This document shows, one piece after another, positions 1,847-37,768 of a DNA stretch of 64,000 nt. Below the pieces are notes generated by a model. That model worked only from the letters and a program-made list of their open reading frames with translations, was not told where the DNA came from and made no database searches. Source of the DNA: Escherichia phage phiWec187. The position numbers and the translations under genes were made by a program. The stretch is taken from the sequence record LC739536.1; one strand, written 5' to 3'. The stretch's first letter is position 1, and every line of letters starts with the position of its first letter.

Positions 1847-2848
1847 ATGCCAGCTATTATCTTAGATCAGGTTGTTGACTTTAGCCCAATGATTGAGCTA
1901 CAAGAAACTCCTGATACACTTATCGCAAGTCTGAACCTGTTTGATGTTCAGTATCATGCTACCACTGCTATCGAAATTGGCAGACAGAAAAATGCAGATG
2001 GTCTGATCCCAGCACGTGAACGTGGTGGTGAGCGTAACTTCCTGACTATGGACGCTCCAAGCGTTAAAGTCTTCCGTATTCCGTTCTTCCCTCTGGATAA
2101 GAACATTAAGGCACAGGATATTCAATCCTTCCGTAGCTTCGCTATGGGTGGCATCAATGATAACCTGCGTACCGAAGCGGAAGTTGTTAACCGCTATATG
2201 ACTCAAATCCTGCGTGATGTTGCAAAAACTAAAGAAAAAATCTTTGCAGAAGCAGTAATGGGTCGTGCATACAATGGTGTTGGTGGTGCAGCTAACTCTG
2301 CATACAACTGGTACACCGAATGGGGTGCTACCCAGAAATCAGTATCTGTAGATTTCGCTTCTACTACTGTTTCTCCGGCTGCTACCATTGAGCAAGAAGC
2401 TCGTGCATACATCATCGATCAGAAACAAGACGGTTCTACCGCTACTCGTATCGTTGCTCTGTGCTCTCGTGAGTTCTTTGCTTCTCTGGTTAACTCTCCG
2501 TTTGTTCGCCAGGCTTATCAATACTTCCAAGGTACTCCGAACCTTCTGCGTGACCGCCTAAGCGGTAATATGGACGTTCAGGTATTCGAATGGAATGGTG
2601 TAACCTACATCGAAGATATCCACGGTAACATCCCTGCTGGTGAAGCGTTTGTTCTGCCAATGGGTATCCCAGATATGTTCCAGGCGCACTATGCTCCAGC
2701 GGATACTCCAGAACTGGCTAACACTGTTGCTCGTGATCTGTATACCTTTATGGTATCTGAACACCGCACTGTACAGCTACAGTCTGAATTCTCCCTGCTG
2801 GCGGTTAACACCCGTCCAGAACTGGTAGTTAAACTGACTACTGCTTAA
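1847..2848 (+). CDS. major capsid protein (lambda gpE-like family)
   Basis: 333 aa, size and position after the decoration gene; strong RBS AGGAGA; followed by a strong terminator, typical of a highly expressed capsid gene. Confidence 0.6.
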   Translation: MPAIILDQVVDFSPMIELQETPDTLIASLNLFDVQYHATTAIEIGRQKNADGLIPARERGGERNFLTMDAPSVKVFRIPFFPLDKNIKAQDIQSFRSFAMGGINDNLRTEAEVVNRYMTQILRDVAKTKEKIFAEAVMGRAYNGVGGAANSAYNWYTEWGATQKSVSVDFASTTVSPAATIEQEARAYIIDQKQDGSTATRIVALCSREFFASLVNSPFVRQAYQYFQGTPNLLRDRLSGNMDVQVFEWNGVTYIEDIHGNIPAGEAFVLPMGIPDMFQAHYAPADTPELANTVARDLYTFMVSEHRTVQLQSEFSLLAVNTRPELVVKLTTA

Positions 2849-2866
2849 TCCTTAACGGGATTCTAA

Positions 2867-2898
2867 AAAGCCTGCCCCTTGCGGGTGGGCTTTTTTAT
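2867..2898 (+). terminator. rho-independent terminator after capsid gene
   Basis: GC-rich stem (gcctgcccc / gggtgggc) followed by ttttttat. Confidence 0.6.
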
Positions 2899-2915
2899 TA
2901 TGTGTCCCACTAACA

Positions 2916-3284
2916 ATGAGAGGAAACACGATTATGGGTAACGCTGTACTGAAAACATATTTTAGCTACCATGAAATGATTATGGATTTTGCTTCACTAT
3001 CTCCTGCATTAGATGCAGGTAAGACACTTAGTGTTGCTCCACCTATGTCATTCTATACTACAGATGGTAGAGTAGCCCTTGGCGGTAACTTTATTCACTT
3101 CTTAGTTCGTCTACGTGAAGAGACAGGAATTCAGGTTCATCCTTTCGGAAGTGAAGAACATCCTGGATACTATCTCGTTAGCTACGAAGAGTATGCACCA
3201 GTAGAATTAAAAACGCAAGATAAAATTGAAGTTAAAGCAGTAGACACACCAGCAAAGAAACGTGCACAGCGCACTAAAAAGTAA
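2916..3284 (+). CDS. hypothetical protein (head-tail joining region)
   Basis: ORF with RBS; position between capsid and sheath genes. Confidence 0.3.
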   Translation: MRGNTIMGNAVLKTYFSYHEMIMDFASLSPALDAGKTLSVAPPMSFYTTDGRVALGGNFIHFLVRLREETGIQVHPFGSEEHPGYYLVSYEEYAPVELKTQDKIEVKAVDTPAKKRAQRTKK

Positions 3285-3296
3285 TAGGAGGTTTAC

Positions 3297-3845
3297 ATGC
3301 TTATAGCTAGTGACCTTGTACCTATGATCCGCATATTGGTATTTAACCCTTCACAAGAAACACTTCCTGATGCAATGATTGAACAAATCATTCAAACGTG
3401 GATAGATGTGCTAGGGAATGATGATGCCAATAAATGTGCTGTACTGTGGAACAGTCTGATCTCTGTACTTGAATACTTGTGGAATACAGACGTACTAAAT
3501 CATAATACACAAACAGGTGGTGCTCTTTCTAGAAAAGAGAAAGTTGGCGAAGTACAGGTTGAAGTAACCTTTGGTACTGGACAGACAGAATACATTTCAC
3601 CTTGGGAAAATATCTATAAAGGATATCTTGATGGTGATATGATGATACCTGGTTGTACTTCTGGTAGAGGTGTAACGAGTAAAGTATTAGTTGGTGGTGT
3701 TGATGCTCGCGAAATTGATCGTGTCAACAGTGATCCTAATTCAGTAAATGGTTTAGGTGGTGTTGGTAGTGTAGATCGACATACGAGAAATATCAAATAT
3801 ACCAGAAACTATGGCCCCATTGGTTACTACAGAAGGGATAAATAA
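3297..3845 (+). CDS. hypothetical structural protein (head-tail joining region)
   Basis: ORF with RBS AGGAGG; gene order. Confidence 0.3.
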   Translation: MLIASDLVPMIRILVFNPSQETLPDAMIEQIIQTWIDVLGNDDANKCAVLWNSLISVLEYLWNTDVLNHNTQTGGALSRKEKVGEVQVEVTFGTGQTEYISPWENIYKGYLDGDMMIPGCTSGRGVTSKVLVGGVDAREIDRVNSDPNSVNGLGGVGSVDRHTRNIKYTRNYGPIGYYRRDK

Positions 3846-4377: not shown

Positions 4378-4794
4378 ATGCTATTAGACCAATTTACTCT
4401 CCTTGATCTTACAACGTATCAGGGTCGTAAAAGAACCTATGTTCAAGATCCTGATTCGCCAATTTCCAATATGGGTAATACAGTAGCATACGAAGACTTT
4501 ACAATAGAGGCTGCAAGTTTGCAACCAATATCAGGTAGAACACTTCAAGCACTGCCAGAAGGATACAGATCTAAGGCACAATATAGCTTCTGGACAAAAA
4601 CAGAAATCAGAGGCATTCAGCAAGGATCAGATCAATTATCTGACCAAATACTAATAGATGGACAATGGTTTTCCATTTATTCTTTGAAAGACTGGACAAG
4701 AACATCTTTCTTAATACACACACATTGTGTTGCTATTCTAGATGACCAGAATAACACCTATTCTTATTCTGAGGAGGGTGGTAATTTTGGCTAA
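4378..4794 (+). CDS. hypothetical structural protein
   Basis: RBS AAAGGAGA then ATG; gene order. Confidence 0.3.
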   Translation: MLLDQFTLLDLTTYQGRKRTYVQDPDSPISNMGNTVAYEDFTIEAASLQPISGRTLQALPEGYRSKAQYSFWTKTEIRGIQQGSDQLSDQILIDGQWFSIYSLKDWTRTSFLIHTHCVAILDDQNNTYSYSEEGGNFG

Positions 4795-5443
4795 TATCTA
4801 TGAACAAATTGAATTGTATGAAAATACGATATTATTAAATATCGCTAAGTTCTTACAAAGACTCGTGGGGCTTCCGGTTTATGTTATGGATAAGCCATTT
4901 GTTAAACCAACAACCCCATATCTGACATTACGTATTGTATCATCTGATGATTCAGGTGGTTGGTCACAAAAATATTCTTTTAGTGAAGATGCGTTTTCAT
5001 ATCTAATGGACAATAAGTATGAAATAGAACTTATGGCTTTTAGAGGAAGACCAATGACACTTTTAAGTTATGTTCTTGCGGCACTTCGTGGTGCAGATGA
5101 ATTAAAATACCAGTATCTTTATTCCAAAGGTATTAGCTTCTTGTCTGCAACAAATGTTGCACAGGCTAACACTGTTCTGGATGGAGATAAAACTGAACAA
5201 AGAGCGAGAATATTTCTTACATTCAATACTACGATGGTTATTGAGGATTTAGTAACTACCGAAATTGAAGCAATTAATATGAACATTCATTCGTTCAGAG
5301 ATGATTACGATGATCCTACTCCAATAGATCTTCCTTTGGATAAGATTTACATTGTTGCTCACAGAAGTAAAACCTATTACTTTACGACGACTGATGATGG
5401 ATCATTAATTAAGTATATCCCAACGGATAATTCATTGGAATAA
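4787..5443 (+). CDS. hypothetical structural protein; start re-assigned to TTG at 4787
   Basis: ORF track starts at 4742 inside the upstream gene; GAGGAGGG RBS 8 nt upstream of TTG 4787 gives a more plausible start with an 8-nt overlap. Confidence 0.3.
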   Translation: MANIYEQIELYENTILLNIAKFLQRLVGLPVYVMDKPFVKPTTPYLTLRIVSSDDSGGWSQKYSFSEDAFSYLMDNKYEIELMAFRGRPMTLLSYVLAALRGADELKYQYLYSKGISFLSATNVAQANTVLDGDKTEQRARIFLTFNTTMVIEDLVTTEIEAINMNIHSFRDDYDDPTPIDLPLDKIYIVAHRSKTYYFTTTDDGSLIKYIPTDNSLE

Positions 5444-5463
5444 AGTTTCTAACAGGAGCATAA

Positions 5464-6870
5464 ATGGCAACTTTTCGTGATAAGGTAGTTTCCGTAACCC
5501 TTACCTACGGTGCTACTTCAATTAGTGAAACACAGTTTGATATCCCTCTAATTCTTACAGGGCATAACGTTACTGGCAATCTTGTAGATTATTTCACTTC
5601 TTCAGACGCACTTCTGCAAGCAGGTTTTGGCACTGCCGATCCAGCTTATAAAATGGCAAAACTACTATTTGACGGTCTGTTCGCACCAGAACAAGTTATC
5701 GTCGGTAAGCGTGATGTTTCTAAAACGACTCTAACTCCAGTAGTTGAAGATAGTGCAACTTACGTTATCACTATTAAAGCAAATTCAAAAAGCAAGGACT
5801 TCAAGTTTGTTGCCGATGATACTGCAACTGCTCAAGAGATTGTTGTTGGTTTAACAGAAATGATCAACGCAGACGTAGTGTATAAAGAATTTTTCACTGT
5901 GTCAAACGATGGTAGTGTTATCACTGTAACCCCAGTTGCAGGTAAATACGCTACTATGGATAGTTCAGGATTCACAACTAACGTAGAATATGCAAATGAT
6001 ATCTTAGAAGATATTGCTAAAATTGCAGACTATGAAAACAGTTGGTTCTGGTTACTATCTGATTCTCACGCAGAACAAGATATTATCGATCTAGCAGGTT
6101 ATGTAGAAGAGCACGATAAAGTGTACTTCTTCTCTACCTCGCAACCAGGTGTTCTAACTAAAGAAGAAGATAACATTCTAGAACGCTTAGGTGATATGGG
6201 CTACAATAACACTTGTATGGCATTGTGGATGACTAACGCTGATACAGTGTTCCCAGAAGCTGCTGTAGTTGGTTCTATCTGCTCTGCAACACCAGGTACT
6301 ACTACCTTGCATGGTAAAACCCTTGTTGGTATCGAGATTGAAAAACTTGGTCAGACAGCAGAAAACTTTATCGTTCAACAGAATGGTAATATTTACCGTA
6401 AAGAACACGGTGTTCTGTTCTACCGTGATGGCTTCATGGTAAGTGGTTTCTATGTTGACTATGTGGTACACGCTCTGTGGTTCAAAGCTCGCGTAGAAGA
6501 ATCTCTGTTCGCTCTATTCAAACAGCAATCTATGCTTGGTAGTGGTGTTAGAGCAACTTCTGCTGGTCTTGCTTTGATTCGTCAGGCTGTTACTGCAAAC
6601 CCAATCCAAGTAGGTATTAACAATGGTTCTATTGCCAATGAGGTAGTAACTTCAGAGGAAACAGGACTTCTGGTAAGCCTTAAACCTACTATCTATATCC
6701 CATCTCGTGCAGATATGACTGATGCTCAAATCAATGCACGTTTGGTTGATGGTATGGTTATTGAATACGTATATGCTGGATTCTTCCACTATGTTAAAGT
6801 GCAGGTAAACGTTCTGACGAACCGCACTGCAAATAGCCAGAATTCCAATAGCTCTACTGTATCTTCATAA
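5464..6870 (+). CDS. tail sheath protein (contractile tail)
   Basis: 468 aa; position immediately upstream of tube, chaperone pair and tape measure; size typical of sheath proteins. Confidence 0.55.
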   Translation: MATFRDKVVSVTLTYGATSISETQFDIPLILTGHNVTGNLVDYFTSSDALLQAGFGTADPAYKMAKLLFDGLFAPEQVIVGKRDVSKTTLTPVVEDSATYVITIKANSKSKDFKFVADDTATAQEIVVGLTEMINADVVYKEFFTVSNDGSVITVTPVAGKYATMDSSGFTTNVEYANDILEDIAKIADYENSWFWLLSDSHAEQDIIDLAGYVEEHDKVYFFSTSQPGVLTKEEDNILERLGDMGYNNTCMALWMTNADTVFPEAAVVGSICSATPGTTTLHGKTLVGIEIEKLGQTAENFIVQQNGNIYRKEHGVLFYRDGFMVSGFYVDYVVHALWFKARVEESLFALFKQQSMLGSGVRATSAGLALIRQAVTANPIQVGINNGSIANEVVTSEETGLLVSLKPTIYIPSRADMTDAQINARLVDGMVIEYVYAGFFHYVKVQVNVLTNRTANSQNSNSSTVSS

Positions 6871-34082: not shown

Positions 34083-34219
34083 ATTTTCTCCTATCTCTTA
34101 TGGTCTTTGCGTTATTCTAGATGTTCAAACATCTAATTATGAAATGGTTTAAAAGTGCGGAACAACCTTGGCAATTACAGATTGTTCCACATAAAAACTC
34201 CTTTAAAATCAAAGATTTG

Positions 34220-37200
34220 TCAATGACAACTAGCCCATGAGTTACCAACATCGTAACCAGCAGTGAGAGGTACATTAAGATTGTAATACTCACCAGCTTT
34301 ATTAACAGCGATAGATGCTAATTCTCCAGCACGACTGTAGGCTGTAAACCAACCACCTTTCGGAGATTCATGTACGTTAGCCCAAATCTTGCCAGTACGT
34401 TTCTCTTCCTCTTCTTTCCAGGTATTAACTTTATCCAAACATTCTTTATCAATTTTCTTTTGTTCTTCTGGATCATCAACTTGAGTCCAACCTAAAGATT
34501 CTTTAGAGAACCATTTAAAATGCACCAGATCACGAGTTACTTCAAGCTGTGCTTCATCGTGATATGCAATCATTTGTTGAACGAATGACTTATTTTTCCA
34601 GTCATCAACAAAAAAGTCAACAGCTAATCCTTCTTCTTCGATAAGATCGTCGTAGATAACCATTGCTCTTTTTGCACAAATAACACCACCACTCTGGAAC
34701 AGAGAGTTAAGTATTGCGTGTGCAGATCGTGTAGGTACTTTTCTACCATCAATACCGAGAATGTATTTCTTACCTGTTTTAACCCAAAAATCATGCAGAC
34801 GTTCTTTAAGAAGCGCAAGAGGTTTTGCAGCTTCCCAGAAAGCATCGTATACAAGCTGTCCTGTATACATATCACTACCTATAGTTTTTGCTACTTTTGC
34901 AGCTTGAGCGCCGTACGTGCAGTTACCTGTCAACGTGATAAAACCATTCTGACGCATAACAAAAGATTCATTCTTGGTTGAGATACAGAATACATCTGTT
35001 ACTCGTGAAAAAGCTCTTGTCAACCTCTGTCCTGAAATAGTTTGTCCGTTATTGATTGCCAACGTTAACATGCCATCTTTTTGAACAGAACCATACGCAA
35101 TATTACCTGTCATATTGATAGCCAAAGAAACAGCGTCGCTAATCTTACCTTTCTTTTGACGGATAACAAGACTGCCGTTTGGACGCTTATGACCATCTGC
35201 CATCCAGAATGCCTCTAAGAATGCTTCCAACACAGCTTGACCTTGATTAGCAATTAATGTAGACCAGTCCACTTCGTGCTTATTTTGACCCACTTCAACG
35301 CCACATTTAGTCAAAAATTCCCTAAACTGACTCTTATTAGGACGTAATGAATGCATCGTTCCAGATACATACTCGTCAAATGTGAAGATATCTCCCACAG
35401 CCTCACGTGCTTCTTCTAAGAATTTTTTCTCATCTTGATCTACCGTGACTGTAATACCCATTACTTTATTTCTGGCTTTGCCAGACCACTTATAGTAGCC
35501 ATCCGAAAGAAGCCAGCCTAAGAAACGACCTTCTTCCACTGTTAGAGTAGACACCACACCAGATCGCCCTGCTGCAATTATGTTTGACTCCGAGTTTAAA
35601 TCCTCTGTAGATCTACGCTCCACTTGCATATACTTAACATTGTTACCATCTGATCGCATAGTTTTTCTCTGTGCGTTAATCCACATATGATCGTTAGTAA
35701 CTTCTACTTTGAACCACTTGTTACCGAGAGAGACAACTTCTGCATCGTTATAGTCCCACAGCTTAAGAATAGGGGTATATTCGTAAAGAGCGGTGTGAGT
35801 ATTATAAGATAAAACTTCATCCCCTACAAAAAGATCTTTACGTTTCTTCCAACCCGTTCTTGTTAACACTTCCGTATTATCTACAGGTACACAACCGTAT
35901 TTAACGCTCTTAGCAGGACCACGTTCAAACTTACGTCCAATAATATCAGTAATATGTTTTGCCATCATAGTATGCACATCGTTTGGTTTTTCTAACAGAA
36001 GTGCATTACAGTAAGCATGATCAGGATTATCATATCTCCACGTATAATGCGACTCAATCTTCGCCTCTAATGAATCAAAGTCATAACCAATCTGGAAGTA
36101 TTTAGGAACCTCTACACCAAATAAGTTACGCATTTCATATCCGTACAGAGATGTTACACGTGGGATATTTGCTACTAACCTATGTTTCATACGAGATGTA
36201 GCTGCATCACACGTTGCAGCAGGAGTTGGTATACGACCATCAGCCCTTACTGCTGCCAGATAACCTTTATCGTAATCCTCTTCTTCTTCCCAATCAGCAC
36301 CACCCCCTAGAATAGAGTTCCTACGGTGTTTATACGTAAGATACTGCACAACCTGCGTAGCATAAGGAAACTTTTCACCTAGTGCTTCCAAGTTAGGACA
36401 AATATCTTTCTCTTGCCCTTTTGTAAAGGAAGGGTTAGTAAGCACTTTAACACCACGACCTTTAGCTTTAGCAATACGATCTCTTAGTTTCCATTCCAAA
36501 GTTTCTGGTGTGCACTCCAGATGATCACATCTGTCCTGGCAGAAATTAGATGCTAATGTTTGATCAACATAGTCACGAATGGCTTTCTCCATTTGTGCTT
36601 CATCTTTCTTAATCTTAGTGCCAGATTTAAGAGTGATATCTTTATCTTTATATTCAGATGGACTCCAACCTAAACCAACTAACCAATTTTTAATATGTGT
36701 TGTGTCGTCTAAAGTAGCAGGTACTGTAGGATCACAAATAGGTTCTTCTGCTGGAATAGGTAGTTTAAACTCTTTACCTAATGCAAATAACCACCAACCA
36801 TCTTCTTTTTGTACAAGTTCACCAGAATGTTTCTCTGCAAACTTTATCATGTTACTTGAAGGTTCACCATTCTTTTTAAACTGTAGTTTAGGTGGAATGA
36901 ATGATTTCAAATAACCTTTAGTAGCAGGTTTAGGAGGTAGCACAGGTTCTGCCTCTAAACGACATGCTTCCATTCGAGCATCCAGATCACGAATATTATC
37001 TTCTGCTTGTTTCATGTTGAAAGCAAAGCCACGGTGCTCTTGACGTGTAATAATATCAGCTACACGTTGTTCTAAGTTAAATGGTTCAGACCACTTATTA
37101 TAATCACCCCACTCTTCCATCAAATAACGGAACACTGCGGTGTTAGCTTTGTTATCGTAAATACAGTAATACAGCATATCTGCTGCAAATGTTCTAAATC

Positions 37201-37768
37201 TTTCAGTTTCAGGGATGTTTTTTCTGAAATCAATTTTAACATCCCCTCCAGCTTTCTTAGATAACTCTGCCAGACTATGACCACCGAAGCGATCAGGGTT
37301 TAGTGTCTTACTTAAGATCATAGTATCACAAATTTCAATGTTACTATTACCCCAAGTATTGTACTTAATACTGTAGTTGAGTTTAAAAAATAATTTAATT
37401 GCCAGTAAGTCGAAGTTAATGATGTTGTGTCCAACTACTTTGGTAATTTTATAGTTTGAATTACCTTTAAATTTACCTGTTCCGTTTACAAAATCAGGAA
37501 AATCTTTAAGAGGGAAATGGGTATATTCTAAATGCTCATATTCCTCCAGTCGGTATTCATACTTTCCGTCAGTCTCAACATACGGACGACCATCGAAAAG
37601 ATATTTATCACCATCATGGAAAGCAATAATCTCTCCAGTATCATGACTTTCGCACACAATACAGTGCATTGCAAAACTATCTTTTAAACGATATGGACTT
37701 GCCAAGTAATCTACACTTTCGTCATTAAGCAAGTTGTTACTTTCAATGTCGAAAGTAAAAGCTCCCAT
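34220..37768 (-). CDS. family A (T7-like) DNA polymerase with 3'-5' exonuclease domain, interrupted by an intein
   Basis: Exo I FDIESNN; motif A DFDSLEAKI; motif B RGPAKSVKYG split by the intein and resuming CTYGAQAAK; motif C AYHDEAQLEV. Confidence 0.85.
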   Translation of the reverse strand: MGAFTFDIESNNLLNDESVDYLASPYRLKDSFAMHCIVCESHDTGEIIAFHDGDKYLFDGRPYVETDGKYEYRLEEYEHLEYTHFPLKDFPDFVNGTGKFKGNSNYKITKVVGHNIINFDLLAIKLFFKLNYSIKYNTWGNSNIEICDTMILSKTLNPDRFGGHSLAELSKKAGGDVKIDFRKNIPETERFRTFAADMLYYCIYDNKANTAVFRYLMEEWGDYNKWSEPFNLEQRVADIITRQEHRGFAFNMKQAEDNIRDLDARMEACRLEAEPVLPPKPATKGYLKSFIPPKLQFKKNGEPSSNMIKFAEKHSGELVQKEDGWWLFALGKEFKLPIPAEEPICDPTVPATLDDTTHIKNWLVGLGWSPSEYKDKDITLKSGTKIKKDEAQMEKAIRDYVDQTLASNFCQDRCDHLECTPETLEWKLRDRIAKAKGRGVKVLTNPSFTKGQEKDICPNLEALGEKFPYATQVVQYLTYKHRRNSILGGGADWEEEEDYDKGYLAAVRADGRIPTPAATCDAATSRMKHRLVANIPRVTSLYGYEMRNLFGVEVPKYFQIGYDFDSLEAKIESHYTWRYDNPDHAYCNALLLEKPNDVHTMMAKHITDIIGRKFERGPAKSVKYGCVPVDNTEVLTRTGWKKRKDLFVGDEVLSYNTHTALYEYTPILKLWDYNDAEVVSLGNKWFKVEVTNDHMWINAQRKTMRSDGNNVKYMQVERRSTEDLNSESNIIAAGRSGVVSTLTVEEGRFLGWLLSDGYYKWSGKARNKVMGITVTVDQDEKKFLEEAREAVGDIFTFDEYVSGTMHSLRPNKSQFREFLTKCGVEVGQNKHEVDWSTLIANQGQAVLEAFLEAFWMADGHKRPNGSLVIRQKKGKISDAVSLAINMTGNIAYGSVQKDGMLTLAINNGQTISGQRLTRAFSRVTDVFCISTKNESFVMRQNGFITLTGNCTYGAQAAKVAKTIGSDMYTGQLVYDAFWEAAKPLALLKERLHDFWVKTGKKYILGIDGRKVPTRSAHAILNSLFQSGGVICAKRAMVIYDDLIEEEGLAVDFFVDDWKNKSFVQQMIAYHDEAQLEVTRDLVHFKWFSKESLGWTQVDDPEEQKKIDKECLDKVNTWKEEEEKRTGKIWANVHESPKGGWFTAYSRAGELASIAVNKAGEYYNLNVPLTAGYDVGNSWASCH
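34922..35893 (-). mobile_element. intein (324 aa) with LAGLIDADG homing endonuclease, inserted in polymerase motif B
   Basis: starts at Cys626 (CVPVDNTEVL), ends at Asn949 (FITLTGN) followed by Cys+1; LAGLIDADG-like FLGWLLSDGY and LEAFWMADGH; boundary codons checked on the nucleotide sequence. Confidence 0.75.

Follow-up and report, generated by a model that had tools for sequence, protein, structure and literature searches.

Inteins with several of the properties described here are already known, including LAGLIDADG inteins in phage replication proteins, Trp-Cys-Thr (WCT) inteins that begin with Cys, and inteins with a penultimate Gly. The intein in gp51 of mycobacteriophage Bethlehem, a recombination directionality factor (RDF)/metallophosphoesterase, splices efficiently with a penultimate Gly, and a Gly316His substitution slows its splicing (PMC5050341). 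The intein in mycobacteriophage Catera gp206, which starts with Cys, has been counted as a class 3 intein (PMC3196547). A 2024 paper stated that no coliphage inteins had been reported so far (PMC11162368), and a related intein of the gene studied here is already annotated in the BASEL phage Bas60 (PMC8594841). Here, we analyzed a 64,000-nt stretch of the genome of Escherichia phage phiWec187 (LC739536.1; hereafter, the window), in which the family A DNA polymerase gene carries a 324-codon insert within motif B. We conclude, with a probability of about 0.88, that this insert is an active and recently mobile intein that excises from the polymerase and homes by means of its endonuclease. Our literature searches found no paper describing this motif B intein, and in the records that we examined it is not annotated as an intein, the gene being labeled plainly as "DNA polymerase I" or similar, or left unannotated.

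A LAGLIDADG intein within motif B of the phiWec187 DNA polymerase

The only family A DNA polymerase gene visible in the window reads as one uninterrupted open reading frame (ORF) on the minus strand (34220..37768), encoding a 1182-aa precursor. The preliminary description of the window had proposed a LAGLIDADG intein here, consisting of a 324-aa insert at 34922-35893 with a Cys start, a Gly-Asn end, and Cys at the +1 position. Direct reading of the codons agreed with this to the base: Cys1 is encoded at 35891-35893 (reverse complement TGT), Gly323 at 34925-34927, Asn324 at 34922-34924 (reverse complement AAC), and Cys+1 at 34919-34921 (reverse complement TGC). Alignment with the intein-less PHB05 allele gave the same boundaries. 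The flanks of the insert are ...RGPAKSVKYG / CTYGAQAAK... (a slash marks a junction throughout), the peptide across the spliced junction is SVKYGCTYGAQAAK, and the mass of the free intein is 36 kDa. The parts of the gene are as follows.

34220..37768, minus strand: intein-containing polymerase precursor, 1182 aa (858 aa once spliced)
35894..37768, minus strand: N-extein, 625 aa, comprising the exonuclease domain, motif A, and the N-terminal half of motif B, up to ...RGPAKSVKYG
34922..35893, minus strand: intein, 324 aa (972 nt), Cys1 to Asn324, a Hint splicing domain with an inserted LAGLIDADG endonuclease domain
34220..34921, minus strand: C-extein, 233 aa plus stop, with Cys+1 as its first residue (CTYGAQAAK...)

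A tblastn search of phage genomes identified intein-less polymerases (PHB05, alia, ECGD1, and many others) that are 98.3% identical over the exteins, and alignment revealed that the PHB05 and alia alleles lack exactly these 324 codons (972 nt). When the protein was spliced in silico, its Pfam DNA_pol_A score rose from 28.4 bits for the precursor to 48.2 bits (cutoff, 34.3); the match of the precursor stops at the intein, whereas that of the spliced form spans the junction. The spliced protein also aligned with T7 DNA polymerase (E 1.2e-19) continuously across the junction, with AKSVKYGCTYGA pairing with T7 AKTFIYGFLYGA. The host sequence RGPAKSVKYG/CTYG matches T7 RDNAKTFIYGFLYG and conforms to the family A motif B, R-x-x-x-K-x-x-x-[FY]-G-x-x-Y-G. 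The insert thus interrupts motif B, as had been proposed, and the T7 alignment of the spliced form puts the junction in the O helix. We take the exact position to be between the equivalents of T7 Gly527 and Phe528, within the K522...Y526...Y530 O-helix motif B (numbering converted from that of the PDB chain). In view of the established role of motif B, an unspliced 36-kDa insert at the O helix would be expected to inactivate the polymerase.

Curated libraries did not recognize the intein, a point that weighs against our conclusion: the Pfam Hint (12.8 bits) and LAGLIDADG_3 (18.6 bits; cutoff, 22.5) matches were both below threshold, and an NCBIfam scan gave no relevant match to the intein. Because the curated models fell below threshold, we used family alignments, profile searches, and structure prediction. 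A single-sequence search of the PDB returned the endonuclease domain of PI-PkoII as its sole match (E 0.0013), spanning both LAGLIDADG motifs, and a family profile aligned with solved inteins over their N-terminal Hint portion (Spl DnaX, 1.6e-4; BIL domain, 2.6e-4; AceL NrdHF, 5e-3). An AlphaFold2 model of the intein, built from a 22-sequence alignment, had a predicted local distance difference test score (pLDDT) of 92.3 and a predicted template modeling score (pTM) of 0.90. In a Foldseek search of the PDB with this model, the top 15 matches were all intein homing endonucleases, the best being TliVMA (7qsu; E 7.5e-16, probability 1.00) and the others including PI-SceI, PI-PfuI, PhoVMA, and PI-TkoII. 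I-DmoI followed these inteins, matching the endonuclease domain (E ~5e-6, target-based TM score [TMt] ~0.65), and the first mini-intein among the structural matches was the class 3 AceL NrdHF intein.

The same insert was found in 11 phage records, with 99.4-99.7% amino acid identity, and homologues occupy the same site at 71%, 55%, and 35-36% identity (P0001, P0002, P0003, and P0008); because of this recurrence, the pattern cannot be put down to chance. Further homologues occupy neighboring positions of motif B or reside in other family A polymerases, and some are in proteins of mycobacteriophages and Gordonia phages. A group I intron and a free-standing endonuclease gene were considered and rejected, as there is no break in the reading frame and the insert contains the Hint parts. 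Together, the sequence blocks, the predicted fold, and the empty alleles support the proposed intein in motif B and indicate that the element is a genuine LAGLIDADG intein.

The splicing blocks are complete and characteristic of a large intein clade

The splicing blocks and LAGLIDADG motifs were located as follows; both of the latter are covered by the alignment with PI-PkoII.

35849..35893, minus strand: splicing block A, CVPVDNTEVLTRTGW, with Cys1 at 35891-35893
35678..35710, minus strand: splicing block B, KVEVTNDHMWI, with Thr66 (B:7), His69 (B:10), and Trp71 (B:12)
35492..35527, minus strand: LAGLIDADG motif 1, RFLGWLLSDGYY, residues 123-134, with Asp131
35186..35233, minus strand: LAGLIDADG motif 2, VLEAFLEAFWMADGHK, residues 221-236, with Asp233
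34955..35005, minus strand: splicing block F, RVTDVFCISTKNESFVM; Cys303 (34985-34987) occupies the class 3 F:4 position and precedes Asn324 by 21 residues
34922..34945, minus strand: splicing block G, GFITLTGN, with Thr322 (G:5), Gly323 (G:6, replacing His), and Asn324 (G:7)

All four Hint blocks (A, B, F, and G), whose absence had been named beforehand as evidence against an intein, are present, and the two LAGLIDADG-like motifs noted earlier each contain an Asp-Gly pair. The intein splice-junction set is made up of Cys1, the block B T-x-x-H (Thr66/His69), Asn324, and Cys+1; the common but non-obligatory penultimate His (G:6) is replaced by Gly323. The two LAGLIDADG helices, in an alpha-beta-beta-alpha-beta-beta-alpha fold, carry the catalytic acidic residues Asp131 and Asp233 of a two-motif enzyme of the monomeric type, and the intein is likely to have endonuclease activity.

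In a nine-sequence alignment (24-71% identity), Cys1, Leu10, Thr11, Gly14, Gly24, Thr66, His69, Trp71, the Ala-Asp-Gly of LAGLIDADG motif 2, Gln246, Gly263, Val301, Cys303, Thr322, Gly323, and Asn324 were invariant. We also considered Asp300 (in TDVFC) as the F:4 residue, which would give a standard class 1 block F. This assignment was rejected because Asp300 is not conserved, the position being Lys in P0006/7 and Gly or Val in actinophage members, and because the Cys three residues on is invariant, with the exact class 3 spacing to Asn.

A search of 1.84 billion representative proteins with the family profile gave 28,435 matches at E<=1e-3, 17,721 at E<=1e-10, and 6,037 at E<=1e-30, the last comprising at least 6,000 clusters at 50% identity that include phage polymerases, methylases, portals, terminases, and lysins. 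We found no name for this large clade. Residues were counted in 212 complete copies among the best profile matches; because these copies were chosen by their similarity to the profile, the counts describe the core of the clade.

Position 1: Cys in 212/212
B:7: Thr in 208/212
B:10: His in 212/212
B:12: Trp in 175/212
Block F, 21 residues before the terminal Asn: Cys in 209/212
G:5: Thr in 182/212
G:6: Gly in 207/212
G:7: Asn in 211/212
+1: Ser in 120, Thr in 65, and Cys in 27 of the 212

The preliminary description rightly gave the penultimate residue as Gly rather than His, but the junction that it called unusual is so only against the general intein consensus. Since Gly occupies this position in nearly all of the copies counted and Bethlehem gp51 splices with Gly, the penultimate Gly is the rule in this clade and not a lesion.

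The Bethlehem gp51 intein, which ends ...VWCLRVPNGRFFIEDGGKIHLTGN/S, was matched by the profile from end to end (hhalign 99.9%, E 3.4e-31). Like the phiWec187 intein, it begins with Cys1, contains a LAGLIDADG domain, has its block F Cys 21 residues ahead of the terminal Asn, and ends in L-T-G-N, but it differs in its host protein and site, in having Val at B:12 and Ser at +1, and in its overall sequence (~20% identity). The Catera gp206 intein and the class 3 inteins MP-Be DnaB, Msm/Mle/Mch DnaB-1, and AceL NrdHF share T-x-x-H-x-W, the F:4 Cys 21 residues before Asn, and Thr at G:5, and Catera gp206 also begins with Cys. This relationship is distant (hhalign 93.7%, E 1.9e-7, with the C-terminal part unaligned), and the phiWec187 intein differs from class 3 inteins in having Gly instead of His at G:6, Cys at +1, and an invariant Cys1 that is absent in most of them. 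AceL NrdHF, also of class 3, likewise lacks the penultimate His (PMC7891396). The PI-SceI, PI-PfuI, PI-TkoII, and Tli/Pho VMA inteins share the overall architecture and fold, with a two-motif LAGLIDADG domain nested in a Hint domain (Foldseek E 7.5e-16 to 5e-10, TM 0.57-0.69), but are only 9-16% identical and reside in other hosts and target genes. These inteins have Asp at F:4 and a penultimate His.

The missing penultimate His and the sub-threshold curated models would also be accounted for if the intein had decayed or the insert were a domain never removed from the protein, leaving the polymerase either inactive or working with the insert in place. We consider this very improbable, as the catalytic positions are all conserved in relatives numbering in the thousands, a clade member sharing this C terminus is able to splice (PMC5050341), the insert would break the O helix between the equivalents of T7 Y526 and Y530, and the allele has spread recently among viable, cultured phages. 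Since ukendt, nepoznato, nieznany, and AV126, which have the same allele, were isolated on E. coli, the polymerase must work.

Several relatives illustrate other states of such elements. Pseudomonas phage KIL4 (L005 2501-3493) has a 331-aa homologue, 32% identical, that interrupts motif B four residues earlier (GK-T/C-NYA); its polymerase coding sequence is annotated as two joined pieces, and the intein may have been treated as an intron. Six actinobacterial or metagenomic relatives (P0029, P0030, P0032, P0034, P0038, and P0041) lack Cys1, start with V/M-D-E-x-T-E-I-L-T, and end with F-T-G-T/P/A in place of T-G-N, with the block F W-C mostly kept; they have the appearance of derivatives of the same clade that are free-standing or decaying. 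In Vibrio phage VnaP (ON212104), the family A polymerase gene contains two ORF-less group I introns (Rfam RF00028, 85 and 61 bits; L006 1161-1421 and 1745-1965), the first of which lies after K-G-I-T-Y-G and before I-M-Y-G, the same inter-codon motif B position as that of the phiWec187 intein. The ORF directly downstream of this gene (2474-3544; also L008 2483-3550) is free-standing and 28-30% identical to the intein over its whole length, with both LAGLIDADG motifs kept and every splice residue lost. It may be an intein-derived endonuclease that acts with an ORF-less intron ("collaborative homing").

A short mosaic tract points to recent homing between phage genera

The tblastn comparison of the polymerase with phage genomes identified phiWec187 as a phi92-like phage of the genus Justusliebigvirus (subfamily Stephanstirmvirinae). 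Its close relatives have three kinds of allele: intein-less, with this motif B intein, or with a different, 245-aa intein. The 11 records with the same intein comprise four of Justusliebigvirus, whose polymerases are 99.3% identical overall to that of the window, and seven of the Phapecoctavirus phages ukendt, nepoznato, nieznany, and AV126. The closest relatives of the window are MG065639, MG065645, MG065656, and MG065689, unannotated "UNVERIFIED" records of Campylobacter phages A150, A145, C3, and A110a. Their host label looks doubtful, because both the sequence and the taxonomy line indicate Justusliebigvirus, a genus of E. coli phages.

We mapped the mosaic structure of the gene by sliding-window DNA identity (60-nt windows) and informative-site analysis. 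In these windows, the backbone of the polymerase gene shows 97-100% identity to PHB05 as against only 55-87% to ukendt, and it is interrupted by a single feature.

34910..36110, minus strand: minimal ukendt-like imported (co-converted) tract, with true ends in 34902-34910 and 36110-36121

This tract of ~1.2 kb consists of the intein, 217-228 nt of the N-extein, and 12-20 nt of the C-extein. All of the informative sites within it match ukendt (53/53 from 36110 to 35897 and 6/6 from 34921 to 34910), and the flanking sites are PHB05-like. Over its 972 nt, the intein differs from that of ukendt by a single base at 35016 (G for A; Arg293, with Lys293 in ukendt). Phage A150 also has A at 35016, and differs from the window at 35014 and 35516 as well. 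As MG065639 carries the same mosaic as the window, both descend from one event.

The donor type was examined by comparing ukendt with its genus-mate ESCO5, which revealed a longer divergent tract around the site, ~400 nt upstream and ~50 nt downstream. This tract of ~470 nt, with 62-90% identity as against 97-100% elsewhere, is centered on both intein sites of the gene (the second is described below), and the tract imported into the window is nested within it. The nesting fits transfer from a ukendt-like donor into Justusliebigvirus, and the ukendt allele is itself either an import or the union of two co-conversion tracts, from an earlier donor.

The junction codons bear the same signature. 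Empty alleles of both genera read ...AAG TAT GGT / ATT ACT TAT GGT..., with Ile at +1, whereas filled alleles read ...AAA TAC GGT / [intein] / TGC ACG TAC GGC.... The PHB05-type empty target sequence is CCTGCTAAATCTGTTAAGTATGGT/ATTACTTATGGTGCTCAAGC. As Ile occupies +1 in the empty alleles, the Cys+1 codon had to arrive with the intein, and it did so within the 12-20-nt downstream part of the tract. These features fit a fresh homing and co-conversion footprint, left by a recent transfer from another phage genus.

It must be set against this conclusion that ordinary homologous recombination, without endonuclease cutting, could also yield a short mosaic tract. The tract might then stem from recombination between co-infecting phages, with an endonuclease that may be inactive, and the phages of this subfamily are indeed mosaic, with other mobile nuclease genes beside the polymerase (HNH in PHB05). 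We regard such an origin as quite unlikely for four reasons. At only ~1.2 kb, the tract brackets the intein tightly and leaves 12-20 nt on one flank. Neither LAGLIDADG motif has lost its Asp-Gly pair. Between genera that share only 55-87% identity in 60-nt windows elsewhere in the polymerase gene, the intein reaches 99.7%. Lastly, the donor shows a similar foreign tract centered on the same site. Homing remains our preferred explanation of the tract.

Next to the polymerase gene, the window has a 137-bp intergenic spacer (34083-34219) where PHB05 and alia have a gene for a 198-aa HNH endonuclease (L002 5608-6204), located between the polymerase and nucleotidyltransferase genes. This represents a second presence/absence polymorphism of a mobile nuclease.

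A WCT triplet suggests that splicing may start at Cys303

The intein contains a WCT triplet that had been missed in the preliminary description, formed by Trp71 (B:12), Cys303 (F:4), and Thr322 (G:5). Trp follows the block B His by two residues, the terminal Asn follows the Cys by 21, and Thr stands 19 residues beyond this Cys. The same spacing is found in the inteins MP-Be DnaB (C320, T339, N341), Mch DnaB1 (H65, W67, C124, T143; H144), Mle DnaB (H65, W67, C124, N145), and Msm DnaB-1 (C118, N139) (PMC2807308, PMC7664689, PMC5222942). The N-terminal junction of class 3 inteins is attacked first by the block F Cys, and Cys at F:4 together with Thr at G:5 has been described as specific to this class (PMC2807308, PMC7891396). 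As of 2010, three inteins were known to combine WCT with Ser1 or Cys1 (PMC2807308). Because the triplet is present, splicing may start at Cys303 rather than at Cys1, and on the sequence we lean slightly toward Cys303 being the obligatory nucleophile, in a class 3-like manner as in Catera gp206.

Several points weigh against this assignment. Class 3 was originally defined by the lack of a nucleophile at position 1 (a requirement relaxed in 2011), and Cys1 is present here; the +1 residue, Cys in this intein, is Ser or Thr in most members of class 3. A Cys1 conserved in every copy and Thr at B:7 in 208 of 212 are what would be expected of class 1. WCT inteins with Cys1 or Ser1 reportedly use the class 3 route (Tori and Perler, 2011), a result cited here through secondary sources (PMC3196547, PMC5222942), which also tempers the assignment. 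Only a single exception with Cys+1 has been reported in class 3, Bvi IcmO (PMC5222942). In addition, Bethlehem gp51, a member of the clade, was treated as class 1 by Kelley et al. (PMC5050341).

The intein has Cys1, as in class 1, yet F:4 is Cys (usually Asp) and G:6 is Gly (usually His). In a class 1 route, Cys1 would form a linear thioester that Cys+1 attacks, Cys303 would only replace the block F Asp in positioning or hydrogen bonding, and Gly323 would only tune the rate of Asn cyclization. We hold this to be a real possibility, although at somewhat less than even odds. The conservation of Cys1 (212/212) and Thr at B:7 (208/212) speaks for it, as do the grouping of Bethlehem gp51, which has the same VWC...LTGN C-terminal architecture, with His-less class 1 inteins by Kelley et al. 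in 2016 (PMC5050341), and the occurrence of Trp at B:12 in class 1 inteins such as gp41-1 (PMC7891396). Conversely, a class 1 route sits poorly with the description of Cys F:4 plus Thr G:5 as class 3-specific (PMC2807308, PMC7891396) and with the listing of Catera gp206, which has Cys1 and the WCT triplet, as class 3 (PMC3196547). Moreover, the block F Cys (209/212) rivals Cys1 in conservation, and non-splicing relatives have lost it along with the other splice residues. The free-standing relatives beside Vibrio phage polymerase genes keep both LAGLIDADG motifs and have lost all of the splice residues together: Cys1, the block F Cys, and Gly-Asn are missing, and Gly and Gln replace the Thr and His of block B. 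This joint loss is consistent with the block F Cys belonging to the splicing apparatus.

A requirement for both Cys1 and Cys303, which would constitute a splicing mode distinct from the three recognized classes, appears unlikely. It could take the form of a thioester relay from Cys1 to Cys303 to the +1 residue, or of a Cys1-Cys303 disulfide that gates splicing by redox state.

A second intein site lies within the imported tract

A further intein site of the same gene, referred to here as site a, is empty in the window.

36041..36046, minus strand: empty alternative site a (ESHY/TWRY), 50 codons upstream of the motif B intein, after motif A

Site a is occupied by the 245-aa intein in phi92, PaulScherrer (Bas60), SD2, ESCO5, and ZCKP1 (ESHY/CVPMD...ITITGN/CWRY). 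This intein is ~32% identical to the motif B intein, with which it shares the CVP.D start, the IT.TGN/C end, and the WCT triplet; it differs in its site, its length, and in having only the second LAGLIDADG motif, because of which its endonuclease is probably defective. It is annotated as an intein in MZ501100 and PQ821640. The "intein" mat_peptide of MZ501100 appears to be shifted by one codon, starting at Val2 and ending at Cys+1 (4732-5466; our own reading is 4729-5463 in L001).

Among the records listed, none carries both inteins. The imported tract includes site a, where the +1 residue is Thr in the window but Cys in site-a-occupied or empty PHB05-type alleles. Since the upstream part of the tract crosses site a and changes the +1 Cys to Thr, acquiring the motif B intein would erase a site-a intein or block its return. 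This fits the interference between neighboring inteins treated in a published study (PMC10643990).

Discussion

The boundaries of the insert, its fold, its conserved residues, and the mosaic tract are directly established, and on this basis an intein cycle can be proposed. The polymerase would be translated as a 1182-aa precursor in which the Hint domain, with its nested LAGLIDADG endonuclease, splits the O helix of the fingers. In the class 3-like route, Cys303 would attack the Gly(-1)-Cys1 bond, the N-extein would be passed to Cys+1, and Asn324 would cyclize without a penultimate His. The intein would excise and join ...KSVKYG to CTYGAQAAK..., giving an 858-aa polymerase. During co-infection, the endonuclease would cut intein-less alleles at ...AAGTATGGT/ATTACTTAT..., and repair would copy the intein with short flanks into the cut genome. 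In the recent event proposed here, a Justusliebigvirus genome would have received a copy of a ukendt-like Phapecoctavirus allele, together with the Cys+1 codon of that allele in place of the codon for Ile.

The locus offers a clean natural case of cross-genus intein homing, in which the donor, the recipient, and the empty alleles are all sequenced, the breakpoints are placed to ~10 nt, and the intein brought its own +1 codon. Two related inteins at sites 50 codons apart in one gene also provide a natural system for interference between neighboring inteins. In addition, this intein is amenable to study in E. coli and represents a large clade in which catalytic signatures of classes 1 and 3 occur together. 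A requirement for two cysteines, if true, would be a new splicing mode beyond the three recognized classes, and which cysteine starts splicing here would bear on thousands of related inteins.

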